From Deltaproteobacteria bacterium (GTDB lineage: Bacteria > Myxococcota > Myxococcia > SLRQ01), in the NCBI GenBank assembly GCA_029210625.1, contig JARGFU010000001.1:325806-389805 (forward strand): a DNA stretch of 64,000 bases. Reading direction: 5' to 3'. How positions within the stretch are numbered: the first letter of the stretch is position 1; every line of letters begins with the position of its first letter. The position numbers were made by a program, and so were the translations under genes. The notes below the pieces were generated by a model, which saw only the letters and a list, made by a program, of their open reading frames with translations, did no database searches and had not been told where the DNA came from. This document shows positions 43,213 to 62,845 of this stretch, in pieces.

Positions 43213-44196
43213 GCGGCCCCCGCCTCCATGTGCCCCTCAAGGCCGTGGACGAGGTCGGCCCCCTGGTCGAGGCCGGCGCCGGCTCCTTCTACGCCGGCCT
43301 CATCCTGCCTCGCCCCGGGGGGGGAGGACGCCGCGGCGGATCCCGCGAGCTGCCTGGTCAGCCGGCGTGCCCACCCCAGCAACAACTTCCAGCGGGTGGA
43401 GGACTTCCTCGAGGCCCAGCGCCAGCTCCACGCCGCGGGCAGATCCCTCTTCCTCACCCTCAACGAGCACAGCAACCCGCCGGAGGTGGTGGACCGCATC
43501 GAGGCCCTCCTCCAGCAGCTGGTCTCGAGCCCGGGGCTCACCGGCGTCATCGTCGCCGACCTCGGCCTCGCCCGCTTCCTCTCGGAGCGCTTCCCCGAGC
43601 TGATCCTGGTGGCCAGCACCGGCCTCGCCCTCTCCAACAGCGGCGCGGTGGAGCTGGTGCGCCGCCTCGGCATCCGGCGGGTGGTCTTCCCGCGGATGCT
43701 CCACCTGGAGGAGATGGCCGCCCTGGTCGAGCGCTGCCCCGAGGTCGAATTCGAGACCTTCGTGATGAACGACCGCTGCCCGAACGTCGACGGGCTCTGC
43801 AACTTCGTCCACTGGGAGGTCGGTGAGACCCACTTCCCCAACCAGTGCCGCTTCGTCCGCCTCGACGGCGCCACGGGTCCCGACCAGCGCCCCGGCAACT
43901 TCAACCTCTCCCTCCGCTTCCGGGAGGACGCCTGCGGCGCCTGCTCCCTCCACGCCCTGCGAGAGGCCGGCGTGCAGCACCTGAAGATCGTCGGCCGGGA
44001 TCGGGGGCTCGAGAACAAGCGGCAGGCGGTGAGCTTCCTGGCCGGGCTCCTCGAGCGGCTGGCGGCCGGCCCCCTCCCCGCCGGCGAGTTCCACGCGCTC
44101 GCCCGCGAGCGCTACGCCGAGACCTTCGGCCGGGCCTGCACCCCCGACCAGTGCTACCTTCCCGGCGAGGGTGAGGCCAAGGAGCCCGCGGCCTGA
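43209..44196 (+). CDS. U32-family (collagenase-like; UbiU/RlhA/TrhP-type) protein, frameshifted at a G8 tract
   Basis: The N-terminus MSGPRLHVPLKAVDEVGPLVEAGAGSFYAGL is in frame 0. From 43325 on, homology continues in frame +1 (RAHPSNNFQRVEDF...IVADLGLARF...FVMNDRCPNVDGLCNFVHW). GTG start overlaps the upstream stop (GTGA). Confidence 0.65.
43317..43324 (+). repeat. G8 homopolymer at the U32 frameshift site
   Basis: cgccccGGGGGGGGagg. Deleting one G restores a continuous U32 reading frame. Confidence 0.7.
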
Positions 44197-44241
44197 TCGG
44201 ACCCCTCGAGGGCCGCTCACCCCGGAAGCGACGGTAGCTCG

Positions 44242-45681
44242 ATGGAACAGGCCCTCTTCGTCTCCTGCCTGGACGATCTGCGACACGCCCACACGCGGCG
44301 CTACGATCGGATCTACTTCGGGGTCGAGGTCTGCCACTGGCTGATGCCGAGCCCCCTCCAGCTGCGCTCGGCCCTCGACTTCGCGAAGCTGCAGGGCCTG
44401 CCGCTCACCCTCGTCACGCCCGTCCTCCCCGAGGTGGGCCTCGAGCGCGTCCGCCCCCTCCTCGCGCTCCTCCCGCCGGGCAGCGAGGTCGTGGTGAACG
44501 ACCTGGGGCTGATCCCCGACGTGAGCGAGGCCGGTCACCACCCCCTCCTGGGGAGGATCCTGCTCAAGGTGAAGCGCGACCCCCGGATCGGCGCCGAGGA
44601 TCTGGAGCACCCGGGCCTGGCCGCGCACCTGCGCGCGTCGAACGTGACCAACCACGCCTTCCAGGCGCTGCTGCGCTCCCTGGGCATCCAGCGCATCGAG
44701 CTGGACAACGTGCAGCAGGGCTACGACCTCGACCTGCCCGACGATCTGCGCACCTCGCTCTATCGCCCCTACGTCTCGGCCGCCGTCACCCGCCGCTGCG
44801 GCCTGAACTTCAGCGAGGGGAACACCGATCTCCTCTGGCGGGACGGGAGCTGCCGGGAGCACTGCCAGGAGACCCAGCTGGAGGTGAGCACCCTCAAGCA
44901 GGTGGGCTCGACGAAGGTCTGGGCCTCCTACCAGGCGCGAGGGGCCAGCCTCTTCTACGCCAACCACGCCGAGCCGGAGGACACCGAGGGCTGGAACCTC
45001 GACCGGGAGGTCCACCTCCCCCGCCCGCCGGTCTTCGCCTCCCTGCCGCCGGACGAGGCCGAGCCCGCCTGGGACAGCGCCTACCGCGAGCAGGGCCTCG
45101 AGGTCGCCTGGAACCACGCCGAGGCCGACCCCCTCCTGCTCGAGCTCGCCGGCCGGGAGCCTCCCCTCGAGGGGGCGAACGCCCGGGCGGTGGAGCTCGG
45201 CTGCGGCACCGGCCGCAACGCCGCCGCCCTGCAGGACCTGGGCTTCGAGGTGCTGGGGATCGAGCGCTCGCCGGCGGCCCTGGCCCTGCTCCGCGAGCAC
45301 CACCCGGCGGTGCAGGCGGTGCTCGGGGACGTGCTCGAGTTCCCCCTGGCCGACGACGCCCACGCGCTGGTGGCCGACTACGGCTGCCTCCATGCCCTCG
45401 CCCCCTCCCGCTGGGGGCGCTACGCCGAGCGGGTGAAGGCCACCCTCGCCCCGGGGGGCCGCCTCCTCCTCTTCGCCCGCCGGCTCCCCGAGGGTCACGC
45501 CCCCGAGGCCCCCGTCTTCGTCGTACCGGGCGGCCTCCCCGAGTGGGGCCTCTCGGAGGCCCACGCCCGTGAGCTCTTCGGGCCCTCCCTCTCCCTGGAG
45601 GAGGTGGTCCCCTACGAGGGCGCCGCCCACGCCTCCGGCGTCGAGCAGTTCAACTACTTCCTCTTCCGGAGGATCGCGTGA
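44242..45681 (+). CDS. fusion protein: U32-family (UbiV-like) domain + class I SAM-dependent methyltransferase domain
   Basis: N-terminal DRIYFGVEVCHWLM...VVVNDLGLI is U32-like. C-terminal VELGCGTGRNAAAL...PGGRLLLF is an MTase motif I / post-I pattern. Confidence 0.75.
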   Translation: MEQALFVSCLDDLRHAHTRRYDRIYFGVEVCHWLMPSPLQLRSALDFAKLQGLPLTLVTPVLPEVGLERVRPLLALLPPGSEVVVNDLGLIPDVSEAGHHPLLGRILLKVKRDPRIGAEDLEHPGLAAHLRASNVTNHAFQALLRSLGIQRIELDNVQQGYDLDLPDDLRTSLYRPYVSAAVTRRCGLNFSEGNTDLLWRDGSCREHCQETQLEVSTLKQVGSTKVWASYQARGASLFYANHAEPEDTEGWNLDREVHLPRPPVFASLPPDEAEPAWDSAYREQGLEVAWNHAEADPLLLELAGREPPLEGANARAVELGCGTGRNAAALQDLGFEVLGIERSPAALALLREHHPAVQAVLGDVLEFPLADDAHALVADYGCLHALAPSRWGRYAERVKATLAPGGRLLLFARRLPEGHAPEAPVFVVPGGLPEWGLSEAHARELFGPSLSLEEVVPYEGAAHASGVEQFNYFLFRRIA

Positions 45682-46763
45682 GCCTCACCCCCCTCAAGGG
45701 CTTCACCCCGGCCGCCTCGACGCCTCGCCTCATCGCCGGCCCCTGCGCCGCCGAGACCCGGGAGCAGGTCCTGGAGGCGGCCCGCGCGCTGGCGGGGACG
45801 CCGGGGCTGATGTGGTTTCGCACGGGGGTCTGGAAGCCGCGCACCCGCTCGGCGAGCTTCGAGGGCGCGGGCGAGCCGGCCCTCGCGTGGCTGGCCGAGG
45901 TCCGGGAACTGGGGCTCGAGCCCTGCCTGGAGGTCGCCCTCCCGCGGCACGTGGAGCAGGCGCTGGCCGCCGGCATCGACTGCTTCTGGATCGGCACCCG
46001 CACCGTGGGCAGCCCCTTCGCGGTGCAGGAGCTGGCCGACGCCCTCGCCGGCTGCGGCGAGGTCTCGCTCCTGGTGAAGAACCCCCTGAGCCCCGACCTG
46101 GGCCTCTGGCTCGGCGCCCTCGAGCGCCTGGAGCGCGCCGGGCTCACGCGCCTGGGCGGGATGCACCGCGGCTTCCTGATGCACTCCCAGGAGGGCCAGC
46201 CCCGGGGAGAGCGCTATCGCTTCAGCCCCCGCTGGCGCCTGGTCCTGGCGCTGCGCCGCCTCCTGCCCGACCTGCCGATCTTCGCGGACCCCAGCCACCT
46301 CGCCGGCCACCGCGAGCTCGTCGGCGAGGTCGCGCAGATGGCCCTCGACCTGGGCCTGGACGGCCTGATGCTCGAGGTCCACCCCCGGCCGGACGAGGCC
46401 CTCTGCGACGCCGAGCAGCAGCTCGATCCGCCCGGGCTCGGCCGGCTCCTCGGCGAGCTGATCCTGCGCCGGCCGGAATCGCCGGCGCCGGCCTTCGGCA
46501 GCGAGCTCGAGAAGCTGCGGGCGGCGATCGACGAGGCCGACGCCGCCATCCTCGAGGCGGTGGCCCGCCGGCTCGGCATCGTCGAGGAGATCGCCCGGCT
46601 GAAGCAGGGGGAGCGGGTGACGCCCTTCCAGCGGGCCCGGATGATCGAGGTGCTCGAGAGCTGGCGGGAGGCGGGCACGAGGCTCGGGCTCGACGACCGG
46701 CTCACGACCGAGCTCTACGAGCTCCTCCACGAGGCCGCCCTCGAGGTGCACTGGAAGCGCTGA
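45678..46763 (+). CDS. bifunctional 3-deoxy-7-phosphoheptulonate (DAHP) synthase (type I-beta) / chorismate mutase (AroQ) fusion
   Basis: LIAGPCAAETREQ and WKPRTRSASFEG blocks are DAHPS/KDO8PS-family. The C-terminal ~90 aa (LEKLRAAIDEADAAILEAVARRLGIVEEIARLK) is a CM domain. GTGA overlap with the upstream gene. Confidence 0.85.
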   Translation: MSLTPLKGFTPAASTPRLIAGPCAAETREQVLEAARALAGTPGLMWFRTGVWKPRTRSASFEGAGEPALAWLAEVRELGLEPCLEVALPRHVEQALAAGIDCFWIGTRTVGSPFAVQELADALAGCGEVSLLVKNPLSPDLGLWLGALERLERAGLTRLGGMHRGFLMHSQEGQPRGERYRFSPRWRLVLALRRLLPDLPIFADPSHLAGHRELVGEVAQMALDLGLDGLMLEVHPRPDEALCDAEQQLDPPGLGRLLGELILRRPESPAPAFGSELEKLRAAIDEADAAILEAVARRLGIVEEIARLKQGERVTPFQRARMIEVLESWREAGTRLGLDDRLTTELYELLHEAALEVHWKR

Positions 46764-48051
46764 GCCGCTCGAGGACCCGCTCGGCCAGGGTGAGCACGCC
46801 CTCGAAGCCGAGGTGCGGCCTCGGGCGCAGGGGGTGGGTGTCCACCTGCGGATAGCCGAACTCGAGCACCGGCAGCTCGGGCGCCCGGCCCGCGATCGCC
46901 CGCGCCTCCCAGGCGCTGCCGATCAACAGATCGAGGGGACCCCGCGTCTCGGCCTCCTCCACGGCCGCCTGGAGCCGCTCCACGCTGGGGTCGAAGAGGA
47001 GGCGCTCGACCCGCGCCTCGACGAGCTCCTGCTCCGGCAGCCCCTCCGGGCCTCCCCGGCTGCGGCAGAAGGCCGTGTCGACCTCGAGGCCGAGATCGTC
47101 GGTGAGGCAGCGCACCATCCCCGGGAGCCACTCCCGGGTGGCGGCGATCATCACCCGCCGGCCGAGCAGGCGATCGGCGACCGTCTCGAGGCGCTCGAGG
47201 ATCCGCTCCTGCTCACGGCCGATGAGCTCGGCCAGGTGGGGCCCCCTCCCCCGCGCCTCACCCAGCGCCTGCAGCCAGGCGCTGCTCCCCTCGAGGGAGA
47301 GGGGCAGGGGCAGCTCGAGCGCCGCCGTCTCGCTCGCCCGCCGCAGCCGCTGGGCGGCCTTGCGGGCCCCGGGCAGCGCGATCAGCTGCTCGCAGGCCGC
47401 CACCCGCTGCAGCTCGGGCCAGGGCGCGCCCGAGAGCCAGGGGGGAAGGAGCTCGAGGCCGAGGAGCCCGGCCAGGCGCGCCAGCTCGAGGAGGTCTCCC
47501 TCGACGTCGCCCTCGCTGCGGTGCGCCAGGTAGCCCAGCAGCCCGAGGGTGTCCGGCTCGACGGCCGGGGCCTCGGCGCAGGCGCCGGCCAGCTCCGCCA
47601 GCAGCACCTCCCAGGCGTCCTCGTAGCTCCGGTCGAGGTGGCGGGTGCGGGCGGCGAGCACCGGCACGCCGTGCCGCTTCTGCAGGGCCCGGGCGACCGC
47701 TCGCAGATCCTCCCCGGCCAGGAGGTAGCGGGGCAGCTCCGAGAGCAGCACCAGCGAGGGCGCGATCCGGGCGAAGGCGCCGTCCGCCGTGCTCATCACC
47801 TCGGACTCGGTGCCCATCACCATCTGGGTGTAGGGGTCCCGGGTGACCCAGAGCCGGTTCGGCGCGTCGGGGCGCGTGAGGGTCTGGCGCAGGTCGTGAT
47901 CGATCATCTGCGCCCGGAAGGCCTCCTCGATGCAGGACGAGCCCCGGTAGAGGAGCAGCGCGTCGGGGATCGCCCCGGCCACCATGAAGACCCCGTCCAT
48001 GAAGGAGGGGGTGGTGCGCAGGGTGTCGTCCCGGGGTGGCGCCTCGCTCAT
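46702..48051 (-). CDS. nitrogenase component-1-like (NifD/K/E/N, BchN/B family) protein
   Basis: GAIPDALLLYRGSSC resembles the conserved GA..IPDA..HG..GC block. GGAGG RBS. ATGA overlap with the upstream gene. Confidence 0.65.
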   Translation of the reverse strand: MSEAPPRDDTLRTTPSFMDGVFMVAGAIPDALLLYRGSSCIEEAFRAQMIDHDLRQTLTRPDAPNRLWVTRDPYTQMVMGTESEVMSTADGAFARIAPSLVLLSELPRYLLAGEDLRAVARALQKRHGVPVLAARTRHLDRSYEDAWEVLLAELAGACAEAPAVEPDTLGLLGYLAHRSEGDVEGDLLELARLAGLLGLELLPPWLSGAPWPELQRVAACEQLIALPGARKAAQRLRRASETAALELPLPLSLEGSSAWLQALGEARGRGPHLAELIGREQERILERLETVADRLLGRRVMIAATREWLPGMVRCLTDDLGLEVDTAFCRSRGGPEGLPEQELVEARVERLLFDPSVERLQAAVEEAETRGPLDLLIGSAWEARAIAGRAPELPVLEFGYPQVDTHPLRPRPHLGFEGVLTLAERVLERLSASSAPRGRPRGGARRARS

Positions 48052-50147
48052 GTCCTGACCTCCGGTCCGCGGAAGGCCGCCAGCCTGCGGCGCGAGTCCA
48101 GCCGCCGCAGCAGCCCGCGGAGCCGGCCGTGGCCGCGGCGATGGCCGGCCTCCCCCATCTCCAGGAGCTGGATGCCCACCGGCGCCGCGCCGGCCGCCCA
48201 GATCTCCCGGCCGGCGTTGTGATCGCAGTAGACGAGATCGAGGGACGCGTCGGCGACGAGCCGGGCGAGCTCGACCTCGTCCTCGACCCGCAGGCGGCGG
48301 GGCCCTCCGCCGGAGGCGTCCGTGGGCTCGTCGTCGCCGCCGAGCTGCACCAGGACGAGCTCGGCGCCGGGGAAGTCCAGGAGCTCCTCCACCGAGGCGC
48401 CGTAGAAGAAGCGGGGATCGAGCACCTCCTCGAAGCTGCCCTGATCGAAGAGCACGCCGATCCGGATGGGCTGCTCCGAGGCGCGCAGCCCGGGCAGCGC
48501 GCTCGCCGCGCCCGCCTCGCCGCCGAGGTCGCGGCCGAGGAAGCGATGGATCGCCTCCAGCCACCGGCGCAGGCCCCGCGGCCCGTAGGGTAGCGCCAGC
48601 TCCAGGTAGGGGAGCTCGAAGCCCTCGAGGAAGCGGGTGAAGGTGTGGCGGATCGGCTCCCAGGGAGAGACGAGGGTCAGGGCCGCCTGGCCGAAGCGCG
48701 CCTCGGCGTCCGCGCCGCGGTAGGGGAGCACGACCTCCCCCAGGGCGAGGCCGTGCCGCTCGAGGGTGCCGGCCAGATCCGCGATCCAGGGGGCCTCGGC
48801 CGGGCCGTAGCCCACCAGGTTGATCCGGGGCGCCCCCTGCAGAGCGGCCGCCGCGCCCTCCTGCGCCTGCACCCGCTCCAGGAACTTGTGCCACCAGTTG
48901 CGCGACTGCGGCTCCTCGAAGCCGGCGAGCACCGGCTCCAGGAAGAGCGCGTCGCTGGCCGCGGGCTCGACGCAGCGGCGGCAGGCCGCCTCGGGGGCGT
49001 CCCCCACCATGTGGAACTCGCAGCCCTCCATCACCCGGGGCCGGGTGCCGGGGAAGCGGCGCACGGTCTGATCGACGATCTGCGCCAGGGTGCGCTCACC
49101 GCCGGTGACCGAGATCGTCTCGTCCAGCCCGGTGACCCGCACCCGCTCGATCTCCATGCGCTCCCGGGGATCGTGACCCCGCCAGGGGCGGAAGCTCGTC
49201 TCGATGCTCCGTCCGAGGGCGCCGGTCCCCATGGCGCACTCCCGCGAGGCGTGGAGCACCATCGGGTCGCTGTCGCGAAGGAAGTTCGCCTCGGCGGTGA
49301 GGCCAAAGGTGTCGGCGTCGCCCCAGGCGGAGAAGAAGCGGCTGCTGGCGTGAGGATCGACGCCGGCCCGGTAGCAGGCCGAGATGAGGCTCTGGCGTTG
49401 CCGCGCGGGCTCTCCCCCGGACTCCGGGGAGGGCTCGCTGGCCGGCGCCTCGGGGGGTGGGCCGGCGGGCGGCTCGGGGGGATCGTCCTTCGGCACCCGG
49501 GCCCAGCCCTGGCGGCCGCCGAGGGTGCGCAGGAGCAGGAAGGTGAGGGCGGTGAAGACCTCCGCCTCGAGCGGCCCCTGCGGGATCAGCCGGCCACCGG
49601 CGAGGGCGAAGCCCTCGCTCTCCTCTCCGGTCTCGCGCAGCAGCACCTCTCCCGCGGCGCCGCCCTCGTCCTCGAGCAGGAAGCGCACGGCCTCCCCCTC
49701 GGCCTCCTCGAGCGCCCTCAAGCACCAGCCGGACCAGAAGGGCCGGCCCAGGGGCAGGAGCCCGGCGATGGCGTCGCCGATCGCCTCGGGGGTGAAGGGG
49801 ATCGGCTCTCCCGGGAGCTCCGGGGCGAGCCAGGGAGCGAAGCCCGCCTCGAGGGCCTGCGTCAGGCGGCGGTGGAAGGCCTCCAGCTGGCGGCGGCTCG
49901 CCTCCCCCCGGGGCAGGCCCTCGCCGCCGATCAGGCGCCAGGCCCCCAGCCCGAGGACCGGCCCCTCCCGGGAGGCGGCGCCGGCCAGCTCGAGGATCAT
50001 CGCCCGCCGGTGGCTGCCCTCACCCCAGGCCAGCTCGAGGCTGCCCTCGGCGGTGGGCCGCAGCCGGGCGGGGCCCTCGCTGCGCGTGCCGAACTTCTCG
50101 GCGAGGTGAGAGAGGACCGAGTCCAGGGGCGGCGGTGCCGAGAACAT
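48048..50147 (-). CDS. nitrogenase component-1-like protein with ~350-aa N-terminal extension of unknown function
   Basis: The C-terminal half shows Oxidored_nitro-like blocks (RINLVGYGPAEAPWIADL..). Tight coupling, 6 nt downstream of the nifH-like stop. Confidence 0.6.
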   Translation of the reverse strand: MFSAPPPLDSVLSHLAEKFGTRSEGPARLRPTAEGSLELAWGEGSHRRAMILELAGAASREGPVLGLGAWRLIGGEGLPRGEASRRQLEAFHRRLTQALEAGFAPWLAPELPGEPIPFTPEAIGDAIAGLLPLGRPFWSGWCLRALEEAEGEAVRFLLEDEGGAAGEVLLRETGEESEGFALAGGRLIPQGPLEAEVFTALTFLLLRTLGGRQGWARVPKDDPPEPPAGPPPEAPASEPSPESGGEPARQRQSLISACYRAGVDPHASSRFFSAWGDADTFGLTAEANFLRDSDPMVLHASRECAMGTGALGRSIETSFRPWRGHDPRERMEIERVRVTGLDETISVTGGERTLAQIVDQTVRRFPGTRPRVMEGCEFHMVGDAPEAACRRCVEPAASDALFLEPVLAGFEEPQSRNWWHKFLERVQAQEGAAAALQGAPRINLVGYGPAEAPWIADLAGTLERHGLALGEVVLPYRGADAEARFGQAALTLVSPWEPIRHTFTRFLEGFELPYLELALPYGPRGLRRWLEAIHRFLGRDLGGEAGAASALPGLRASEQPIRIGVLFDQGSFEEVLDPRFFYGASVEELLDFPGAELVLVQLGGDDEPTDASGGGPRRLRVEDEVELARLVADASLDLVYCDHNAGREIWAAGAAPVGIQLLEMGEAGHRRGHGRLRGLLRRLDSRRRLAAFRGPEVRT

Positions 50148-50153
50148 CTGGGC

Positions 50154-51017
50154 TCACGACCCCCGCTGGCTCCCGGACCGCGCGGCCCGGGCGTGCTCCT
50201 GGAAGAGGGCCCGCAGCTCGACGTCGGAGAGCGGGGTGGGCACGATCCGCTCGAGGGCCGCCTCGTCGGCGATCGCCTCGAAGATCGTCACGAGCGCTCC
50301 GCTGGCCTCGCCGGTGGCCCCCTCGCCGCTCCGGAAGAGGGGCTCGCCCTCGAGCTCCGAGAGCACCACCTCCTCGGAGAAGGGGAGGTGACCCACCAGG
50401 CGGGTCTGCAGGGCCTCGGCGAAGCGCTCGAGGAGGCGCAGCTCCTCCGGGCTTCGCACCTTGTTCCCGATGATCCCGGCGACCCGGGCCTGGCCGATGT
50501 CGGAGAGGTTGTCGACGCCGCGGGCGATGTTGTTGGCGGCGTAGAGCGCCATGTACTCGGCGGAGGTGATGAGGAAGACGTCCGAGGGGATGTCCTCCCG
50601 CAAAGGCGTGGCGAAGCCACCGCAGACCACGTCCCCCAGGACGTCGAAGAAGGCCAGGTCGTAGGTGCGCTCGAGCTCCATGGACTCCCGCACCATCTCC
50701 AGCACCAGGCTCACCGCGCGGCCGGCGCAGCCGGTCCCCGGCTCGGGCCCGCCGGTCTCGATGACGTCGACCCCGGTGGGGGTCGAGACGATGAGCCGTT
50801 GCAGATCCTCGGGCCCCATCCGCCCGACCAGGCGGAGGAACTCCTGCATCACCGTGGGCACGGGCTCCCCCCGGTGATGGGCCAGGGTCGAGTCGTGCTT
50901 CGGATCGCAGCCCACCTGCAGCACCCGCAGATCGCGGCTCGCGCCCACCGAGGCGAGGCCCGAGCAGAGGGTCGACTTCCCGATCCCTCCCTTGCCGAAG
51001 AGGATGATCCTTCGCAC
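50154..51017 (-). CDS. NifH/BchL/ChlL-family ATP-dependent reductase iron protein homolog
   Basis: GKGGIGKST P-loop, GCDPKHDST, both cluster Cys (CAGR, VCGGFA). GTG start with an AAGGAAG RBS. Confidence 0.9.
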   Translation of the reverse strand: MRRIILFGKGGIGKSTLCSGLASVGASRDLRVLQVGCDPKHDSTLAHHRGEPVPTVMQEFLRLVGRMGPEDLQRLIVSTPTGVDVIETGGPEPGTGCAGRAVSLVLEMVRESMELERTYDLAFFDVLGDVVCGGFATPLREDIPSDVFLITSAEYMALYAANNIARGVDNLSDIGQARVAGIIGNKVRSPEELRLLERFAEALQTRLVGHLPFSEEVVLSELEGEPLFRSGEGATGEASGALVTIFEAIADEAALERIVPTPLSDVELRALFQEHARAARSGSQRGS

Positions 51018-51087
51018 GCTTCCTTTTCCGATCCGCGGGTCGTTTCGTCCACCGACGAGGCCACCCGGCCTCCCCGGGAGCGGGTCA

Positions 51088-51111
51088 TCCTAAACCAGAG
51101 ATCATGATTCC
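51088..51111. promoter_or_regulatory. 24-bp element CCTAAACCAGAGATCATGATTCCC (left arm of inverted-repeat pair) in the nflH-like promoter region
   Basis: Its reverse complement recurs at 51234-51257 with 21-22 of 24 matches. Lies in the AT-richest segment of the window. Confidence 0.5.
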
Positions 51112-51233
51112 CGAACAGTCGCTGGCGCCGCGGACGTGCCCGGATGCAAGGAAGGGTGAGGGAACATAGCCCTAACTATGCGACCGAGGCCTGACGCCGC
51201 AGGCGGGTGCGGCCTGCAAGCCAGAGGCGTCCG

Positions 51234-51257
51234 GGAATCTTGATTTCTGGTTTAGTA
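51234..51257. promoter_or_regulatory. right arm of the inverted-repeat pair (GGGAATCTTGATTTCTGGTTTAGT)
   Basis: See 51088. The pair brackets ~120 bp of the divergent promoter region between nflH-like and the 51302 gene. Confidence 0.5.
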
Positions 51258-51301
51258 TGGGGCCCCGGAGGCCCGGTGCCCAGCAGATCACCCTCCATTC
51301 G

Positions 51302-52579
51302 ATGCGCTACAATCGCCGGGTGAACCATCGCCTCTCCCTCGCCCTCGTCCTCCCGGCCCTCCTCCTGACGATCCTCGCCGCCGCCTGCTCCGACACCGGC
51401 ACCGGCGTCTGCCCGGACACCGACGAGGACGGGGTCTGCGACCTGAACGAGGCCTGCCCGGGCGGCGACGACAAGGTCGACACCGACCTGGACGGAGTGC
51501 CGGACGACTGCGACAGCTGCCCCCTGAACTGGCCCGACGACTCGGACCTCGACGGCACCTGCGACGTCGACGACCTCTGCCCCGGCCACTCCGACCTCCT
51601 CGACGGGGACGGCGACGGTATGCCGGACGACTGCGACCGCTGCCCCCTCGACAACCCCGACGACTCGGATGGCGACACCCGCTGCGACAGCGACGATGTC
51701 TGCCCCGGCGGCGACGACCGGCAGGACTCCGACGGCGACGGCACCCCCGACGCCTGCGATCTCTGCCCGAACGACACGACCGGCGACTCCGACCTCGACG
51801 GGGTCTGCGACAGCGTGGACCTCTGCCCGGGCTTCGACGACGGCGTCGACTCCGACGGTGACGGGATCCCCGACGGCTGCGACACCTGCAGCTCCGCCTT
51901 CGACACCGACGGCGACTCGGTGCCGGACGACTGCGACGCCTGCCCCGGCTTCGACGACGCGATCGACGCCGACCTCGACGGCGCGCCGGACGGCTGCGAC
52001 CTCTGCCCGGGCTTCGACGACCGGACCGACGCCGACGCCGACGGGATCCCCGACGACTGCGACCTCTGCCCCGCCGGGCCCAACGGCGTCGACACCGACG
52101 GTGACACGGTCCCCGACGCCTGCGACGCCTGCCCGGGCTTCGACGACCGGATCGACCTCGACGGCAACGGCCGCCCCGACGGCTGCGACCCGGCCCTGCC
52201 CGCCCCCACCGGGGTCCGGGCCAGCGGCGACGTCTGCAGCTGGGGCGTCTTCTGGGACGCGGTCACCGACGCCACCTCCTACGAGGTGGGCTGGTTCTGC
52301 AGCGGCTCCTACCAGGGAGACGGCTGCTCCACCGACGCCGACTGCGACTTCACCCTGGTCTGCGTGGGGAGCAGCCCGCCGAGGGTCTGCACCGCCCCGA
52401 CCGCCCACTCGACCACCGGCACCAGCGTGATCCTGGAGAACACCGCCATCGTCACCGGCGGGCAGTGCCTGGTGGTGGACATGGTGGTGAGGGCCTGCGG
52501 CGACGCCGGCTGCAGCGAGTGGGTGCACGTCCCCGCGAGCGGCCTGCCCCTGGCCTGCGGCGGCGGCTGCTGCGTGTAG
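51302..52579 (+). CDS. lipoprotein with ~15 thrombospondin type-3-like Ca-binding repeats (DxDxDGxxDxCDxC) and Cys-rich C-domain
   Basis: Signal LLLTILAAACS. Repeats such as DSDGDGIPDGCDTC and DTDGDTVPDACDAC. Confidence 0.75.
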   Translation: MRYNRRVNHRLSLALVLPALLLTILAAACSDTGTGVCPDTDEDGVCDLNEACPGGDDKVDTDLDGVPDDCDSCPLNWPDDSDLDGTCDVDDLCPGHSDLLDGDGDGMPDDCDRCPLDNPDDSDGDTRCDSDDVCPGGDDRQDSDGDGTPDACDLCPNDTTGDSDLDGVCDSVDLCPGFDDGVDSDGDGIPDGCDTCSSAFDTDGDSVPDDCDACPGFDDAIDADLDGAPDGCDLCPGFDDRTDADADGIPDDCDLCPAGPNGVDTDGDTVPDACDACPGFDDRIDLDGNGRPDGCDPALPAPTGVRASGDVCSWGVFWDAVTDATSYEVGWFCSGSYQGDGCSTDADCDFTLVCVGSSPPRVCTAPTAHSTTGTSVILENTAIVTGGQCLVVDMVVRACGDAGCSEWVHVPASGLPLACGGGCCV

Positions 52580-52588
52580 GAGAGCACG

Positions 52589-53008
52589 GTGTTTCGCCTG
52601 CTCGAGGAGCGGCCCGGCTCAAAGGGGGCACCGGGCGCCGCCACCGAGCTCGAGCCCGCGGAGCTCTCGGGCGCCACCGGCCCGCGGATCGTCTGCGCGG
52701 GCTGCCTGCACGTCCTCACCCGCGGGAGCGAGCGCATCCCCGTGGAGGGCGAGCACGAGCACGTCCGGGTGAACCCCTTCGGCTACGCCTTCCGCTTCGC
52801 CTGCTTCGCCCGGGCGCCGGGCTGCGTCCTGCGGGGCGAGGCGGAGCGCACCGCCACCTGGTTCCCGGGCCGCGCCTGGCGCTACGCCCACTGCGGCGGC
52901 TGCGGCGGACACCTGGGCTGGCACTGGGAGCAGCTCGCCGGCGAGGGGAGCTTCTTCGGGCTGATCGTCCCCCGCATCACCGAGCTACGCGACGCCCCCG
53001 AGGCCTGA
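52589..53008 (+). CDS. CULT-like (cereblon/Mss4-like beta-tent) zinc-binding domain protein
   Basis: CAGC...(~75 aa)...HCGGCGGHLGWHWE mirrors the CxxC...CxxC...GW motif of cereblon-type thalidomide-binding domains. GTG start with an AGGAGA RBS. Confidence 0.5.
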   Translation: MFRLLEERPGSKGAPGAATELEPAELSGATGPRIVCAGCLHVLTRGSERIPVEGEHEHVRVNPFGYAFRFACFARAPGCVLRGEAERTATWFPGRAWRYAHCGGCGGHLGWHWEQLAGEGSFFGLIVPRITELRDAPEA

Positions 53009-53018
53009 AGGCCGAGCT

Positions 53019-55181
53019 TCAGCGGCAGACCGAGAGGTAGCGGGTGGTCCCGAAGACCTCGTGGGGCTCGACCTTGCAGTGGCGCCCCCCGCTGCAGTCG
53101 GCGTCGACGCAGCAGCGGGCCAGGCAGACCCCGGCGCCCAGGTCGCAGACCCCCGAGGCGCACTCGGCGGGGTGGGTGCAGGGCGCGCCGACCACCCCGG
53201 TGGCCGTATCCGGCGCCAGGAGGCAGAGGTCGAAGTCGCCGTAGGCTCCGTAGTTCTGCTTGCCGCAGAAGTGCCGGCGGCCGTTCACCGCGCCGGCGCA
53301 GTCGGCGGCGGTGCAGCAGGGAAGCGTGCAGTAGTCGAGGACGCAGTCGTTGGCGTCCTGCTGCCGGTCGTAGTCCCCGCACCAGGCGTTGGCGTCGGCC
53401 GGACAGCTCGCGGGCGTGGCGCAGGAGGTGTCGTAGGAGACCACCGCCGAGCAGAGCCCCGCCCGGCAGCTCTGGGTGGGCGCGGCCGGGGGCGTGGCGC
53501 AGCCGGCGGTGCCCAGGTCGTCCGCCGGCGCGCCGGCCAGGCAGGCCAGGCGCCCGCCGGAGACCACCGAGCAGACCTCCCCCGGGCAGTGGGCGCCGGT
53601 GCAGCAGCTCTCCTTGCAGACCCCGCCCTCGCAGACGCCGCTGCGGCACTCGGCGTCGGCGATGCAGGGCGCGTGGGCCCGGGCGGCCAGGCCCAGGGCG
53701 GCGTCGGGCTGGCAGAGGCGCAGCATGCAGCCGGAGCAGGCGGCGTCGGGGTCCTTCTCCGGGCGGCAGACCCAGCCCGCCGGGCAGTCCGCCTGGCGGC
53801 AGCACTGCGCGCTGCAGAGGGTCCCGCCGCCGAGATCGTCGACGCCCAGCCCCGAGGCGCAGGCGGTGCAGATCCCGCCGGGGCAGGGCTGGCCCACGTC
53901 ACCGTAGTCCACCGCCGAGCAGCGCCCGCTGCCGGGATCGCAGGTCTGGCCGTGGGGGCAGTCGTACTCGCGGTTGCAGCCCGCGACGCAGTAGCCGCCG
54001 GCCTCGGGCAGCCCGCCGCCGTCGGTGTCACAGACCGTGCTCGGCGGATTGCACGCCGCGTCCGAGAGGCAGTCGCGCGCCTCGCAGTGGCCGGCCGAGG
54101 GCCCCGAGAGGAGGCAGCGCTGCGCCGCCGGGCAGTCGGCGTGGGAGGTGCAGCCCGGCACGCAGGCGCTGCCCTGACAGACGAAGCGCGGCGGCGCGCA
54201 GTCGGCGTCGGCGCCGCAGCTCGAGGGCAGACAGATCCCGCTCGCCAGGTGGCAGCTCTCGCCGCCGGCGCAGTGCCCGTCCGAGGTGCAGCCGGGCTCG
54301 CAGAGCTCGGCCACGCAGCGCGGGGCGCCGTCGGGGCAGTCGGCGTCGGTCCCGCAGGGGGGCATGCAGAAGCCGGAGGTGGGGCTCGCCGGATCGAGAT
54401 CGCAGCTCGGCCGGTCGGCCAGCTCGCAGTCGGCGTGGGCGGCGCAGGGCGGGTGGCAGCGGCCGTCGAGGCCACAGTTGGGCAGGGTGAGGTCCCGGCA
54501 CTCGCTGCTGGTGCGGCAGGGAGGCAGGCAGCGGCCGCTCACCGGCTCGCAGACCGGGAGGGCGTCGGGGCAGGCCGCCCCCGGGCAGCGGCCCTGACAG
54601 AGGCCCGTGCCGGGGTCGCAGACCGGGAGGGCCGGCGGGCAGTCGGCGTCCCGGGCGCAGGGCCCCTGGCACTCGGTGGTGTCGGGGTTGCAGTTGGGCA
54701 GGTCGGCGTTCGGGCAGTCGAGGTGATCCGCGCAGGGATCGTAGCAGCGGCCGTCGGTGCCGCAGTAGGCCTTGCCGATGGCGGCGCAGGAGGTCTGCGG
54801 GCAGGGCGCCAGGCAGACGCCGGCCGCCTCGTCGCAGTTGGGCTCGAAGCCGGGGCAGGGCCAGATCGGACAGGGGGGCCGGCAGAGACCCGCGACCGGA
54901 TCGCAGACCGGGGTGGCGGGATCGATGCAGTCGGCCGCCACCGCGCAGGCGGCGAAGCAGACGCCGAAGCGAGTGTCGCAGTTCGGGCGGGACCCCTGGC
55001 AGTCATTGCTCGAGGTGCAGCCCGGCACGCACTCGCACTCGTAGCAGACCTCTCCCACGACACACTGCGTGCAGTCGCAGGGGAGCGGCTCCTTCGGGCA
55101 GCCACCCAGCAGGAACGAGAGCGAGAGGATGGAGAGCGCGATCCCCCGGTCGAGCCAAGTCATCGGAGAACCATAGCGCAT
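53019..55181 (-). CDS. large lipoprotein built from ~25 Myxococcus-type cysteine-rich repeats
   Basis: Lipobox FLLGGC. Repeated C-x3-5-DC-x5-8-C-x4-8-G-x-C units such as SNDCQGSRPNCDTRFGVC and DADCPPALPVCDPGTGLC. GGAGG RBS. Confidence 0.8.
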   Translation of the reverse strand: MRYGSPMTWLDRGIALSILSLSFLLGGCPKEPLPCDCTQCVVGEVCYECECVPGCTSSNDCQGSRPNCDTRFGVCFAACAVAADCIDPATPVCDPVAGLCRPPCPIWPCPGFEPNCDEAAGVCLAPCPQTSCAAIGKAYCGTDGRCYDPCADHLDCPNADLPNCNPDTTECQGPCARDADCPPALPVCDPGTGLCQGRCPGAACPDALPVCEPVSGRCLPPCRTSSECRDLTLPNCGLDGRCHPPCAAHADCELADRPSCDLDPASPTSGFCMPPCGTDADCPDGAPRCVAELCEPGCTSDGHCAGGESCHLASGICLPSSCGADADCAPPRFVCQGSACVPGCTSHADCPAAQRCLLSGPSAGHCEARDCLSDAACNPPSTVCDTDGGGLPEAGGYCVAGCNREYDCPHGQTCDPGSGRCSAVDYGDVGQPCPGGICTACASGLGVDDLGGGTLCSAQCCRQADCPAGWVCRPEKDPDAACSGCMLRLCQPDAALGLAARAHAPCIADAECRSGVCEGGVCKESCCTGAHCPGEVCSVVSGGRLACLAGAPADDLGTAGCATPPAAPTQSCRAGLCSAVVSYDTSCATPASCPADANAWCGDYDRQQDANDCVLDYCTLPCCTAADCAGAVNGRRHFCGKQNYGAYGDFDLCLLAPDTATGVVGAPCTHPAECASGVCDLGAGVCLARCCVDADCSGGRHCKVEPHEVFGTTRYLSVCR

Positions 55182-55211
55182 CGCAGCCCCTCCGAGCTCC
55201 CGTGGAGAGGC

Positions 55212-55255
55212 CGTGGACGTGTACGTGGACGTGGACGTGCACGTACACGTCCACG
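55212..55255. repeat. (ACGTNN)7 hexanucleotide tandem repeat with 14-nt inverted-repeat arms (CGTGGACGTGTACG ... CGTACACGTCCACG)
   Basis: Second member of the hexamer family seen at 35211. Sits between the rSAM stop (55279) and the Cys-rich lipoprotein start (55181). Confidence 0.7.
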
Positions 55256-55278
55256 GGTTCTCCCCCGACCACCTGACC

Positions 55279-56820
55279 TCAGCCCCGCAGGACCCCCATG
55301 AGGATCTTCAGCCCCTCGACGGTCGCGGGGCCCGGCTCACCGCCCTCGACGCGGTAGCCGCCGCTCGGCTTGCTGCGCTCCTGCGCCAGCCAGAAGGTCA
55401 GCCGCGCGCCCTCGGGGCCCTCGAGGGAGAGCTCGGCCCGCTGGCCGTCCACCGAGAGCTCGAGGGCCGTCCAGCGCAGCTCGCCGAAGGGGGCCGCCGC
55501 GCGCAGGCGGCCGAGGCGGCCGCGCAGGCGGCGCTCGCCCCGGCCGAGGAGATCGCGGCCCGGCGGGTGCACCGGCCGCTCGCCGCCGGCGAGCAGCCCC
55601 TCGAAGAGGGCCAGCAGCGCCTCGTAGACCCCCGCCTCGTCGTCGGGCGCCGAGCGCAGGTGGATCGAGAAGTCGGCGAAGCCGCAGAGGCCCACCTCGG
55701 AGGCGGGGCGCAGGGCGAAGACGAGCTCCCCGGGCTCACCCTCGAGGTGCAGCTCGAGCTCGTTGTCGGCGGTGAGCGAAGGCGCCGCCGCGCCGAAGGC
55801 GGCGAGGGGGCCGAGGGCCGCGGCGCGCTGACCGGCGGCCCAGAGGTGGGGCCAGAGCACGCGCCGGTTCGGGTCGGCCTCGCGCAGCTGCTCGACGTTC
55901 ACCGGCTCGAGCTCCTCGAGGCCGTAGAAGTCCCGGTAGGTCTCGAAGGTCCCCGAGCAGCGCGCGGTGAAGACGCAGGACGCGCAGCCGGTGGTCTTGA
56001 GCTTGTCGGTGCGCTTGTCCTCGTACTTGTCCCAGGGCGCGGAGAGCGCGTCGTCACCGTCGACCGAGACCGTGTAGGTCATCTCGCCGTCGTGGTGGAT
56101 CCACCGGGCGAGGTGCGGCGCCACGCAGTAGGGCAGGTTGCCGATGTTGAGATCGAAGTCGCCGGCGACGCCCTGCGCCAGGGCGGTGAGGGGCCCCCGC
56201 AGCTCGGCGTAGCTCGGGAGGATCGCCCGCAGCTCCTCCTCCTCGCGCACCCCGGCGTCCCGCGGCCGCATCATGTCGAGGTGGAGCTGGTCGATCCCGT
56301 AGCGCTCGATCAGCTCGGGGAAGTGCTGCACGGAGGCGGCGTTGCTCTTCACCACGCACATGTTCGCCGAGACCCGCTCCCCCCGCTCGCGCAGGCCCTC
56401 GAGGGTGGCGAGGATCCGGCCGAAGGAGCCCGGGCGGCGGGTGGTGGCCTCGTGGGCCTCGGCGGTGGCGCCCTGCAGCGAGAGCCGCCAGCGCAGCGGT
56501 GCGCCGAGGGCGATGAGCTCGTCGATGTAGCTGCCCCGCGCGGTCTTCACGCCGTTGGTGAAGAGGACCACCTCCTCGAAGCCCAGCGCGGCGCAGCGCT
56601 GCAGCACGGCCTTGAAGCCGGGCTGGAGGGTGGGCTCACCGCCCAGGAGGGTGATCTTCCGCAGGCCGTGGGCGTGGGCCGCCTCGATGTGCTCCAGGAT
56701 CGGCTCCACCGGCATCGGCCCCGCCTCGCCCCAGGAGGTGCGCTGCCCGCTGACGCAGAAGACGCAGCGGTTGTTGCACATGTGCCCGAGCTGGATCTCG
56801 GCCTGGCGGGTCGGCTCCAT
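55279..56820 (-). CDS. radical SAM/SPASM-domain enzyme with novel C-terminal domain (paralog of 7932-10097)
   Basis: CNNRCVFC is a CxxxCxxC motif. CASCVFTARC is a SPASM-type motif. The C-terminal LELSVDGQRAELSLEGPEG motif is shared with the 7932 gene. AGAAGGTAG RBS. Confidence 0.85.
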   Translation of the reverse strand: MEPTRQAEIQLGHMCNNRCVFCVSGQRTSWGEAGPMPVEPILEHIEAAHAHGLRKITLLGGEPTLQPGFKAVLQRCAALGFEEVVLFTNGVKTARGSYIDELIALGAPLRWRLSLQGATAEAHEATTRRPGSFGRILATLEGLRERGERVSANMCVVKSNAASVQHFPELIERYGIDQLHLDMMRPRDAGVREEEELRAILPSYAELRGPLTALAQGVAGDFDLNIGNLPYCVAPHLARWIHHDGEMTYTVSVDGDDALSAPWDKYEDKRTDKLKTTGCASCVFTARCSGTFETYRDFYGLEELEPVNVEQLREADPNRRVLWPHLWAAGQRAAALGPLAAFGAAAPSLTADNELELHLEGEPGELVFALRPASEVGLCGFADFSIHLRSAPDDEAGVYEALLALFEGLLAGGERPVHPPGRDLLGRGERRLRGRLGRLRAAAPFGELRWTALELSVDGQRAELSLEGPEGARLTFWLAQERSKPSGGYRVEGGEPGPATVEGLKILMGVLRG

Positions 56821-56829
56821 GGCTACCTT

Positions 56830-59064
56830 CTAGTCTCCCTTCGGGGTGTGGACCAGCGAGGCGAGGGCGGCGCCCGCGGCCGGCAGGTCCGCGGTGCCCA
56901 GGCGAAAGACCTCGACCTGCTCGCAGCGGGCGATCAGCGCCTCGAGGTCCGGGCGATCGAGGGAGGGCAGCTCGAGGCAGCTCTGCAGGAGCGCGGCCGC
57001 ACCCTCGGCGGCCGGGAGGGCCTCGAGGCCCCCGGCCTGCGTCCGGTCCGGGAGGATCAGGGCCCGCAGGGGAGCCGGGCCCTCGGCCGGGAGCGAGAGC
57101 CAGCGCAGGGCGTCGGGGTCGGCGGGGTCGCGCGCCGTCAGCTCCAGCCGCAGCCCGGGTGGCAGCAGGCGCTCCCCCTCCCCCTTCACGGTGACCGGCT
57201 TGGAGAGGCCCCGCACCTCGCCGCCGGGGTCGAGCGCGACCAGCTCGTCGCTCTGGTACCCGGCGCCCGCCGCGACCGCGTGCGCGCAGAGCAGGCTCTT
57301 GCCCGCGCCGCTGACGCCCGGGATCACCACCGCGCCGGCCGGGCCGCTCAGCGCGGCCGCGTGGAAGAGGGGCTCGCGCCCGGCGCCGGTCAGCCCGCAC
57401 CACGCGGCCTCCACCAGGGATCGCAGGGCGCTCGAGGCGTTCGCGTCGCCCGCCGGCTCGCCGTCGACGAGGAGGTAGTGGCGGGTCAGCGCCTCGGGGG
57501 AGGGCCGGCGGCTGTGGACCTGGATCCAGCCCAGGATCTCCCCGCGCCCGTCCGCCGCCTCGGGCAGGAGGTGGGCGGAGAGCCAGGGCGAGAGGAGGGC
57601 CCAGGCCTCGGGGCTGGCCTCCAGGTAGACCTGGCCGCGCAGCTGCGGCAGGGCCGAGAGGACGGCCCCCGCGCCGAGCGACTCGCGCAGGAAGAGCCCG
57701 GGCCGCGCGGGCGGGGCGTCCAGGGGGCGCTCCCCGGGCTCGCCGAGGGGCCAGCGCCGCGGCGGCGCCTCCGGGGCGGGCGGCGCCTCCGGGGCGGGCG
57801 GCGCCTGCTCCAGGAGCAGGCCCTCGCGCGTCAGCGCCGAGCGGACCTCGCGCAGATCCTCGTGGAAGGCGGCCTCGCCGCCGGGCTCGCCGTAGGCCCG
57901 GGCGAAGTGGGCGGCGGTGGCCTCCACGCCCTCCCCCGCGGCGAAGTGCTCGAGGGCCTCGGCCGCCGTGGCGTTGAGGAGGTGGACCTTGCCGGCGCCC
58001 CGCCGCAGGAGCAGCCGCTCCTCGCCGCAGTCGAAGGACTCGACGCCGGGCGCGAGGTGGAGCGCCGCCTCCGGGGCCGGCGCTCCGGGCTCGCCGGGCG
58101 GGAGGTAGTCGCAGCGGGGGTTCTTCGCTCTCGCGTCACCGAGCTCGGTGAGGGGCAGCGCGCGGCAGTCGAAGCACTGGGCCTTGCGATCGCAGCCGCG
58201 GCAGTCCTCGACGTCGTCGACGGTGAGCGCCCAGAGCCCGGCGAGGGGCCCCTCGGCCAGCACCCGCGGCAGCGGCGTCTCGGCCACGTTTCCCACCACC
58301 GCCGAGCGGGAGAAGATGCAGGGGGTGACCCGGCCCGAGGGGTCGATGGCGAGCTTCCCGTCCCAGCAGGTCGCCTGCGCCGCGTTGCCCCCGGGGGCGT
58401 GGAGCGTGGCCCAGGCCGAGTCCCGGCAGGCGGTGCAGGAGGGCACGTCCCCCGGCCGGGAGGCGGTGCGCCCTCGCCCGGTCGGACGGACGGGATCCAC
58501 CGAGAGGGGCGTGAGCACCCCCAGCCGCCGCACCAGGCTCTCCACCGCGGCGGCGTCGCCGGCGTTGCCCTCGGTCAGGACGGTGGCGACGCGCAGGTGC
58601 AGGCCCACGGCGCAGACCCGGCGGATCGTCTCCACGGTGGCCTCGAAGCTGCCCTCGACCCCGGTGACGGCGTCGTGCACCGGGGCGCGGGCGGAGTGGA
58701 GCGAGATGGCCAGGGCGACGCCGTGGCGGGCGAGGAAGGCGAGGTCGTCGTCGGAGAGCCGGGTCCCGTTGGTGAAGAGCTCGATGGCGAGCCCGCGCCG
58801 GCTGGCGTGCTCCACGAGGCGCCGCCAGTCGGGATGCGCGGTGGCCTCGCCGCCGGTGAACTGCACCGAGCTGCCGCCGGCGGCGACGATCTCGTCGAGG
58901 AGCTCGAGCCAGCGCTCGGTGGGCAGGCTGCGGTGCGGCGTCTCCGGCGTGCTGTGGGTGTAGCACTGCTCGCAGCGCAGGTTGCAGGCGTGGGTGAGCT
59001 CGAGCCAGGCGAACTCGAGCCCTCCCTCGCCGCGCCCTGCCGGCGCGCTGGATCCCGCCCTCAT
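56830..59064 (-). CDS. multidomain RiPP-maturase-like protein: radical SAM/SPASM + PqqD-like RRE + HprK-like P-loop (putative peptide kinase) domain
   Basis: CNLRCEQC is a CxxxCxxC motif. CTACRDSAW is a SPASM-region motif. HLLNATAAEALEHFAAGEGVEATAAHFARAY is a PqqD-like fold. GVSGAGKSLL is an HprK-type P-loop. Start MRAGSS (59064) was chosen over the upstream GTG. Confidence 0.8.
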   Translation of the reverse strand: MRAGSSAPAGRGEGGLEFAWLELTHACNLRCEQCYTHSTPETPHRSLPTERWLELLDEIVAAGGSSVQFTGGEATAHPDWRRLVEHASRRGLAIELFTNGTRLSDDDLAFLARHGVALAISLHSARAPVHDAVTGVEGSFEATVETIRRVCAVGLHLRVATVLTEGNAGDAAAVESLVRRLGVLTPLSVDPVRPTGRGRTASRPGDVPSCTACRDSAWATLHAPGGNAAQATCWDGKLAIDPSGRVTPCIFSRSAVVGNVAETPLPRVLAEGPLAGLWALTVDDVEDCRGCDRKAQCFDCRALPLTELGDARAKNPRCDYLPPGEPGAPAPEAALHLAPGVESFDCGEERLLLRRGAGKVHLLNATAAEALEHFAAGEGVEATAAHFARAYGEPGGEAAFHEDLREVRSALTREGLLLEQAPPAPEAPPAPEAPPRRWPLGEPGERPLDAPPARPGLFLRESLGAGAVLSALPQLRGQVYLEASPEAWALLSPWLSAHLLPEAADGRGEILGWIQVHSRRPSPEALTRHYLLVDGEPAGDANASSALRSLVEAAWCGLTGAGREPLFHAAALSGPAGAVVIPGVSGAGKSLLCAHAVAAGAGYQSDELVALDPGGEVRGLSKPVTVKGEGERLLPPGLRLELTARDPADPDALRWLSLPAEGPAPLRALILPDRTQAGGLEALPAAEGAAALLQSCLELPSLDRPDLEALIARCEQVEVFRLGTADLPAAGAALASLVHTPKGD

Positions 59065-59156
59065 ACGACCTGGCAGTATAGGCCGCCGTCGGCAGGATGC
59101 GGTTGCAGGACGACCCGAAAGCCTGTCATCTTCGGCTGGAGAGAGGACCCAACCCC

Positions 59157-59402
59157 TTGGCGAAGAAGGAAGACCTGAAGCCACCCACCGAGGAGGCGGC
59201 CGACCCGGTGCGCCGGGGCAAGCGCCTGCGCCGCTACCTCGCGCCGAAGATCCGGACCCTCGCCCTGCCGACCCTCCAGGCCAGCCCCGCCTGCGGACCG
59301 GCCGGCTGCCCGCCCAACCTCCAGGGCTGCGGACCCAACGTCTGCGGTCCGGTCATGCCGCCCCCGAGCTGCGGACCCGCGGGCTGCGGGCCCCGCAACT
59401 GA
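59157..59402 (+). CDS. candidate Cys-rich precursor peptide (core ACGPAGCPPNLQGCGPNVCGPVMPPPSCGPAGCGPRN)
   Basis: A small ORF in the 345-bp gap directly upstream of, and divergent from, the maturase. TTG start with a GGAGAGAGG RBS; an alternative ATG lies at 59097. There are five CGP motifs in 40 aa, encoded by a CTGCGGNCC nucleotide repeat. Confidence 0.45.
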   Translation: MAKKEDLKPPTEEAADPVRRGKRLRRYLAPKIRTLALPTLQASPACGPAGCPPNLQGCGPNVCGPVMPPPSCGPAGCGPRN

Positions 59403-62741: not shown

Positions 62742-62845
62742 CGCTGCGTTGTCCTCCTCGACGGGGCCCAACCCCGTCTTCGTCGTCCGCCTTGCGCTAC
62801 TCGTAACTAGGCGGCCTTGCTCGGTCAATCAAACCGGTCGGCGCT

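Follow-up and report, generated by a model that had tools for sequence, protein, structure and literature searches.

A putative low-copy family of small palindromic repeat elements in Myxococcota-like bacteria, with one copy between a nifH-like gene and a lipoprotein gene

We analysed a stretch of 64,000 nucleotides (positions 325,806 to 389,805 of contig JARGFU010000001.1, assembly GCA_029210625.1; hereafter, the window) of a Deltaproteobacteria bacterium, in which a pair of 24-bp inverted repeats lies between the divergent genes for a NifH-family protein and a lipoprotein. These 24-mers are best read as terminal inverted repeats that delimit a single copy of a small palindromic repeat element, approximately 166–174 bp long and non-coding. 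The element belonged to a family, represented by full and truncated copies, that had conserved AT-rich arms, occurred in unrelated genomic contexts, and folded better on one strand than on the other. With a probability of roughly 0.6, we interpret this family as a new, low-copy one resembling MITEs (miniature inverted-repeat transposable elements) and the palindromic ERIC and Correia elements, of which the window copy probably forms a leader hairpin in a transcript shared with the lipoprotein gene. In other uncultured Myxococcota-like bacteria, the element was found next to genes of unrelated kinds, so that it most probably does not serve as a switch specific to the nitrogenase-like operon, which begins with the NifH-family gene.

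Inverted repeat and palindromic element in the window

A repeat search delimited two arms of 31 nt each, 112 nt apart and 87% complementary, which matched at 27 of 31 positions where chance predicted no match. The degenerate 24-mer CTAAACCAGARATCAWGATTCCCG, which describes both arms, occurred exactly twice in the 64 kb, at 51090–51113 on the plus strand and at 51232–51255 on the minus strand, with an expectation of 0 from 100 dinucleotide-preserving shuffles of the window. No third arm was found in the 64-kb window, even when 7 mismatches in 24 were allowed. The inverted-repeat pair named in the original prediction was therefore real, albeit displaced by one base: CCTAAACCAGAGATCATGATTCCC occupied 51089–51112, and its partner was the reverse complement of 51233–51256. 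At these corrected coordinates, the two 24-mers matched at 21 of 24 positions, in line with the predicted 21–22, and the flanking genes were as described, with the NifH-family gene on the minus strand and the lipoprotein gene on the plus strand. Among the 173 inverted-repeat pairs in the window with arms at most 250 nt apart, only those at 62690–62847 and 55204–55263 stood out beside the element.

The repeat was not confined to the arms. The single copy in the window formed a 174-nt imperfect palindrome along its full length, located in the 284-bp spacer of the divergent nifH-like and lipoprotein genes. The GC content of the left and right arms was 45% and 42%, respectively, compared with 72.7% for the window, and that of the whole element was 59.8% (0.27th percentile of 174-nt windows). 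The 112-nt spacer between the arms had been taken for the least GC-rich DNA of the window; its GC content was 68.8%, only the 23rd percentile of 112-nt windows, and the AT-rich part proved to be the arms. Other GC troughs of the same length (57–60% GC; 32161–32334, 4107–4280, 33977–34150, and 11078–11251) were as low as the element or lower.

A near-palindrome had been predicted inside each arm; only the left arm held a perfect one of 8 bp, ATCATGAT, and the right arm read ATCAAGAT. The element contained no conserved open reading frame (ORF), and the ATG of the left arm was missing from the copy between polA and queA described below. A short outward reading frame (MISGL...) beginning in each arm was rejected, as its frame and length differed among copies.

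Related copies, conserved fold, and termini

Four full copies of the element were recovered, namely that of the window, one from a deltaproteobacterial metagenome-assembled genome (MAG), and two from Joint Genome Institute (JGI) metagenome contigs, together with three partial copies (Table 1). The full copies were 166–174 bp long with inverted repeats of 24–31 bp, and the other three were 79%, 76%, and 67% identical to the window copy over approximately 165 nt. With a covariance model trained on them, the four full copies scored 155–187 bits on the sense strand and 45–81 bits on the other strand. The genes downstream of the full copies encoded the lipoprotein, QueA, an aldehyde-dehydrogenase-like protein, and a thioesterase, which have no common function. 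The three partial copies did not fold (z about 0), as would be expected of decayed remnants.

The fold of the full copies was a single rod. The segment 51080–51265 (186 nt, comprising the element and six flanking bases on each side) folded at −99.1 kcal/mol with a z score of −6.6 on the plus strand and at −90.4 kcal/mol on the minus strand. RNAalifold predicted one rod of 55 pairs from the alignment of the four full copies, and 94.5% of the pair positions were actually paired over these copies, compared with 29–40% in a control in which the partner was slid by 1–3 columns. Compensatory changes on both sides of a pair were found in 11 of the 55 pairs, whereas column shuffles gave 5.3 ± 1.6 and none of 500 shuffles reached the observed number. 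The inner helices carried these changes; the arms, which form the outer helix, were nearly invariant, with 16 of 24 pairs unchanged across the four copies. The rod-like hairpin of the full copies is thus maintained by compensatory changes, and its pairing is under selection.

The same (sense) strand folded better in all four full copies, by 8.5, 24.3, 19.5, and 6.2 kcal/mol, and contained 6–8 G-U pairs, compared with 1–2 on the opposite strand. In each case, it was the strand of the gene that starts 7–42 nt beyond the 3' arm; in the copies at L075 and L122, the context of which is known to be co-directional, it was also the strand of the upstream gene. This strand asymmetry, which rests on four related sequences, is suggestive but not conclusive. 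No Rfam 15 family reached its gathering score anywhere in the window, and a permissive search around the element gave only chance-level matches (E ≥ 0.58). Two known classes of structured RNA were set aside on context: a riboswitch or pathway-specific leader, since the downstream genes share no pathway, and a retron non-coding RNA, since the neighbours are the NifH-family and lipoprotein genes or polA and queA, and not the reverse transcriptase gene typical of a retron, and the fold is an unbranched single rod.

Searches with the arm sequence required filtering. A scan of genome contigs with the 20-mer AAACCAGANATCANGATTCC returned at least 120 loci (L001–L120), the listed examples of which were mostly pyruvate phosphate dikinase genes. 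The 20-mer coincides with the code for KPEIMIP (VKPEIMIPL in the examples), a conserved motif of this enzyme, which explains nearly all matches in unrelated phyla and why arm-only searches were swamped; across all scans, 121 of the 135 matches listed fell in stop-free reading frames. Among the genome contigs listed, the informative matches came from one MAG, that of Deltaproteobacteria bacterium CSSed165cm_581 (MAG SLRQ01), in which the matches listed comprised a full copy (L075) and two partial ones (L063). A scan of the JGI metagenomes with a tighter pattern returned 11 loci, three of which belonged to the family (L121, L122, and L124). A further locus of that search, L123, matched the model weakly and was rejected as a CAGAA-type low-complexity stretch. 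In viral contigs, the arm pattern matched three times, with none of the matches scoring as an element with the covariance model, and an interior-specific pattern did not match; blastn against plasmid and phage collections returned nothing relevant, and the arm sequence had no match in the literature searched.

The consensus termini of the element were TA-AACCAG...CTGGTT-TA. The flanking dinucleotides were TA/TA in the window and TA/TG, TA/TG, and CA/TA in the other three full copies, the variants CA and TG each being one transition from TA, and no longer direct repeat was seen around the four full copies. As TA is its own reverse complement, a duplicated TA target is indistinguishable from an extension of the inverted repeat; if TA is the duplicated target, the element proper would occupy 51093–51252. 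Where a gene abutted the element, its stop codon consisted of the terminal TA and the next base (L075, 4222–4224; L063, 7577–7579): the TAA within CTAAACC ended polA in L075 and a 253-codon ORF in L063, and a TAG stood at the edge of a second rod in the window (62846–62848). TA is rare in a GC-rich genome except in, for example, stop codons, and an insertion that targets TA would therefore tend to land there.

Presence and absence of the element could be compared at the thioesterase locus (L124), for which five distinct relatives were available with proteins 82%, 79%, 79%, and 76% identical. None of the five relatives had an arm upstream of the thioesterase gene. In three of them (L135, L136, and L137–L140), a spacer of 46–50 nt or an overlapping upstream gene took the place of the element, and one (L141) had a divergent spacer of 111 nt. 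For the polA–queA locus (L075), the nearest QueA was 61% identical. The best homolog found for the NifH-like protein of the window was 54% identical, leaving no closer ortholog for a comparison of the window's own spacer.

The two half-copies in L063 had the same orientation, were complementary, and bracketed a 3.7-kb segment with genes for an inositol monophosphatase, a histidine kinase, a LuxR-type response regulator, and the 253-codon ORF. The outer ends of their arms faced the segment, giving the order 3' half, segment, 5' half. This order would result either from a circle opened within the site or from a tandem pair in which each copy is truncated on its far side.

Table 1. Features of the element in the window, its flanking genes, and related copies elsewhere
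Feature	Location	Strand	Description
Whole element	51086–51259	+	One unbranched rod; plus strand folds better; covariance model 186.6 bits (+), 80.9 bits (−)
5' arm (left terminal inverted repeat)	51086–51116	+	Core 24-mer CTAAACCAGAGATCATGATTCCCG at 51090–51113; holds ATCATGAT; 45% GC
TA at 5' terminus	51091–51092	.	Partner TA at 51253–51254; read from sequence
Conserved middle helix, 5' side	51130–51147	+	GCGGACGTGCCCGGATGC; identical in window, L122, and L124; compensated changes in L075
Apical hairpin	51165–51180	+	CATAG, loop CCCTAA, CTATG; stem kept in 4 of 4 copies, loop varies
Conserved middle helix, 3' side	51199–51220	+	GCAGGCGGGTGCGGCCTGCAAG; carries G-U pairs conserved on the plus strand
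3' arm (right terminal inverted repeat)	51229–51259	+	Core is the reverse complement of 51232–51255; 42% GC
NifH-family protein gene	50154–51017	−	First of the nitrogenase-like cluster; Pfam Fer4_NifH, 3.4e-65; GTG start 68 nt from the 5' arm
Lipoprotein gene	51302–52579	+	TSP3-like Asp-rich repeats; lipobox LAAAC; ATG 42 nt past the 3' arm
Full copy	L075, 4221–4388		Deltaproteobacterial MAG; between polA (TAA stop inside arm) and queA; both arms and conserved interior
Full copy	L122, 276–441		JGI metagenome contig; 9–10 nt upstream of aldehyde-dehydrogenase-like gene
Full copy	L124, 842–1007		JGI metagenome contig; 9–10 nt upstream of thioesterase gene
Partial copy	L063, 3842–3865		5' half, approximately 50 nt
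Partial copy	L063, 7576–7599		3' half, approximately 80 nt
Partial copy	L121, 1327–1350		5' half; 71% GC contig; 91% identical to window over 45 nt

Flanking genes and other hairpins in the window

The NifH-family gene is followed by two Oxidored_nitro genes, and the cluster (41320–59184) places these three genes amid three radical SAM genes, one of which has a B12-binding domain and another a SPASM domain. Genes for a methyltransferase, a peptidase U32, and a DAHP synthase/chorismate mutase fusion were located nearby. The NifH-like protein was approximately 39% identical to CfbC of methanogens, and the N-terminal ~290 residues of the first Oxidored_nitro ORF had no Pfam match. On the other side of the element, the lipoprotein gene encodes repeated DxDxDGxPDxCDxCP motifs, which are specified by five copies of a ~123-nt unit, 67–75% identical, at 51416–52000; despite its TSP3-like look, the lipoprotein had no Pfam match at E ≤ 0.001. 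The nifH-like/lipoprotein intergenic region contained no convincing sigma-70, sigma-54, or NifA-site consensus, and no recombinase or transposase was found among the neighbour genes tested in the window.

The two other prominent inverted repeats of the window were also hairpins. A second rod of 164 nt (62687–62850, minus strand), with 20-nt arms GAGCGCCGACCGGTTTGATT and AATCAAGCCGGTCGGCGCTC, began within the TAG stop (62848–62846) of an upstream ORF and ended 1 nt before the GTG of the chorismate synthase gene (62688). The folding energy of its sense strand was −93.3 kcal/mol (z = −6.5) and that of its antisense strand −77.9 kcal/mol; it had no Rfam match. The second rod shares size, architecture, and strand bias with the element. 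Homology of the two is not claimed, as only TGATT/AATCA and the architecture are common to them and the covariance score of the second rod, 18.6 bits, is attainable by any hairpin of that size. The hairpin at 55204–55263, with a 29-nt stem (GGAGAGGCCGTGGACGTGTACGTGGACGT and ACGTGCACGTACACGTCCACGGGTTCTCC; 90% complementary) and a 2-nt loop, followed the stop codon of a radical SAM gene (55279–56820, minus strand) at a distance of approximately 16 nt and looks like a terminator.

Origin of the element and comparison with known systems

Bacterial MITE-like elements are described as shorter than 200 bp, non-coding, and AT-rich, with terminal inverted repeats, TA termini, and transcripts that form long stem-loops (Delihas review, PMC2229807). 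The element described here is small and non-coding, has conserved terminal inverted repeats, and is AT-rich with a long stem-loop fold. A tiny MITE-like element was one of three readings in the original prediction and fits best among them, albeit in a weaker form than the many dispersed copies with target-site duplications that the prediction had asked for, in that the copies are few and lack an unambiguous target-site duplication. We propose that transposition in trans brought the element to its site, possibly into a TA target, and that the element would be co-transcribed with the gene downstream of it, here the lipoprotein gene. The transcript would form an imperfect RNA hairpin of approximately 55 base pairs in a leader or between cistrons, which could alter the processing or stability of the mRNA by analogy with ERIC and Correia elements. 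An effect on the nitrogenase-like operon, if any, would be incidental.

Several observations weigh against this interpretation. No target-site duplication was unambiguous, and the 3' side read TG in two of the four full copies. The copy number appeared low: the 64 kb examined of the source genome held one copy, and the JGI metagenome scan as a whole gave three family loci; classic MITEs tend to be far more numerous. The distribution of the family seen in the genome scan covers the matches listed. An autonomous insertion sequence with the ends of the element was not found in the plasmid and phage collections or among the genes near the copies. The relatives at the thioesterase locus were only 76–82% identical and the far flank of L124 was missing, so that the comparison indicates lineage-specific presence rather than a clean empty site. 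Finally, the compensatory changes and the strand bias of the G-U pairs are equally consistent with a selected RNA function.

This last point leads to the alternative of a non-mobile family of structured RNAs, that is, rod-shaped leader or intercistronic RNAs of approximately 170 nt that are selected in cis, for example as a module for RNase III processing or stability before a start codon. Compensatory changes in 11 of 55 pairs, G-U pairs conserved on one strand only, a sense strand that was the stabler one in every full copy and always that of the gene immediately downstream, and, before the chorismate synthase start, another rod that looks unrelated yet matches in size and strand bias are all in its favour. 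We nevertheless consider it unlikely, given that the downstream genes are functionally unrelated, the element is missing at the thioesterase site in five relatives, truncated copies exist that do not fold, and no Rfam family matched. Moreover, the arms preserve their sequence instead of co-varying, 16 of their 24 pairs being invariant, which points to recognition by a protein. The structured-RNA and mobile-element readings are also compatible, as ERIC and Correia elements combine the nature of a mobile-type repeat with that of an RNA hairpin. A related idea, which we regard as improbable, is that of a mobile, strand-specific folded nucleic-acid module in place of a passive MITE, the invariant hairpin base of which would be recognised by a putative enzyme; candidates are an RNase III-type activity processing the transcript and a recombinase acting on the folded single strand. 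On that idea, the copies flush between stop and start codons, the second rod, and the L063 arrangement would together point to attC-like or cassette-like recombination outside integrons in Myxococcota.

The original prediction had also offered paired operators for a dimeric regulator or DNA looping, in which a dimeric transcription factor would act on the divergent nifH-like and lipoprotein promoters. Two near-identical 24-mers within a divergent promoter region, the starts of which lie approximately 142 bp from each other, the 8-bp palindrome of the consensus arm, and solo arms near gene starts in L063 and L121 would suit such an arrangement. However, the same element, with both arms and a conserved, paired interior, recurred at unrelated loci, including between co-directional housekeeping genes where it overlapped a stop codon, and 55 co-varying base pairs between the sites are not needed by operators. 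The absence of any other arm in the 64 kb, the lack of a promoter consensus between or beside the arms, and the better fold of the strand shared with the lipoprotein gene rather than with the nifH-like operon also argue against this reading, and an 8-bp palindrome within a 24-mer has, by rough estimate, a chance probability of approximately 7% and was lacking in the right arm. We therefore judge operators to be very unlikely here. The lowest probability falls to an inverton, that is, an invertible promoter switching the surface lipoprotein or the nifH-like operon: inverted repeats of 24–31 bp do flank a 112-bp segment between divergent genes, one of which encodes a surface lipoprotein, but inversion would change little in an interior that is palindromic and shows compensatory changes, other copies lie flush between the stop and start of co-directional genes, and neither a recombinase among the neighbours tested nor a promoter consensus inside the segment was found. 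Hardly more probable is a folded single-stranded recombination site like the attC of integrons, or the end of a hairpin-acting transposon. The termini YTAAAC...GTTTAR resemble the attC boxes RYYYAAC...GTTRRRY, the hairpin is strand-biased, and the L063 halves bracket their 3.7-kb segment in the order of an opened circle; against this, 166–174 nt exceeds the usual attC range of 57–141 nt, each terminal box fits the consensus at only 5–6 of 7 positions as judged by eye, and attC recombines at the R' box rather than at the hairpin apex. The copies were also single and outside cassette arrays, no integrase or HUH-type gene was located near the copies examined, and the L063 halves do not fold.

For the annotation of the window, the preferred reading as a MITE/ERIC/Correia-like element removes a tempting but unsupported tie of the inverted repeat to regulation of the nitrogenase-like cluster. 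It would add a previously undescribed palindromic family in poorly sampled, high-GC Myxococcota-like bacteria, for which a covariance model now exists, and, if co-transcription holds, a further instance in which a small repeat has been recruited as an RNA hairpin for leaders or intercistronic regions.

Looping operators of the lac, gal, and ara type likewise pair nearly identical sites of a promoter region across a distance of more than 100 bp; the element differs from them in its conserved and paired interior, in recurring as a unit at unrelated non-promoter sites, and in lacking a regulon-like distribution. With attC sites, it shares an imperfect palindrome with similar conserved terminal boxes, a variable centre, and a strand-specific fold, whereas its helix layout has neither R/L boxes nor the central unpaired spacer. 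REP/REPIN sequences, which are associated with RAYT transposases, are similarly extragenic, hairpin-forming, and strand-specific, and are not known to have classic target-site duplications. REPs are, however, palindromes of 20–40 nt with a conserved GTAG, present in tens to hundreds of copies and accompanied by a RAYT gene, none of which was seen here, and the arms of the element are not themselves hairpins.

Closer likenesses were found among the elements with which we group the family. Correia elements (NEMIS) of Neisseria are likewise small and non-coding, with ~24-bp inverted repeats, TA termini, an AT-rich composition, positions beside genes, and stem-loop transcripts (PMC2229807), and are proposed to act through RNase III (PMC2229807; PMC2649163). 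They differ from the present element in their unrelated sequence, host phylum, and length (107–155 bp), and in having a demonstrated TA duplication, integration host factor (IHF) sites, and outward promoters. Correia elements are also very numerous, whereas the family described here has few copies. The enterobacterial elements ERIC (IRU; 127 bp) and YPAL (RU-2; 168 bp) are, like the element described here, intergenic and imperfectly palindromic over their whole length (PMC2229807). Neither has sequence in common with it; in ERIC, contiguous terminal pairing extends over only 7 bp, and YPAL lacks TA termini and is not AT-rich. Both are co-transcribed with flanking genes, with an effect on mRNA stability that depends on orientation (PMC2229807), and the strand bias of the element, together with its fixed orientation relative to the downstream gene, parallels this behaviour.

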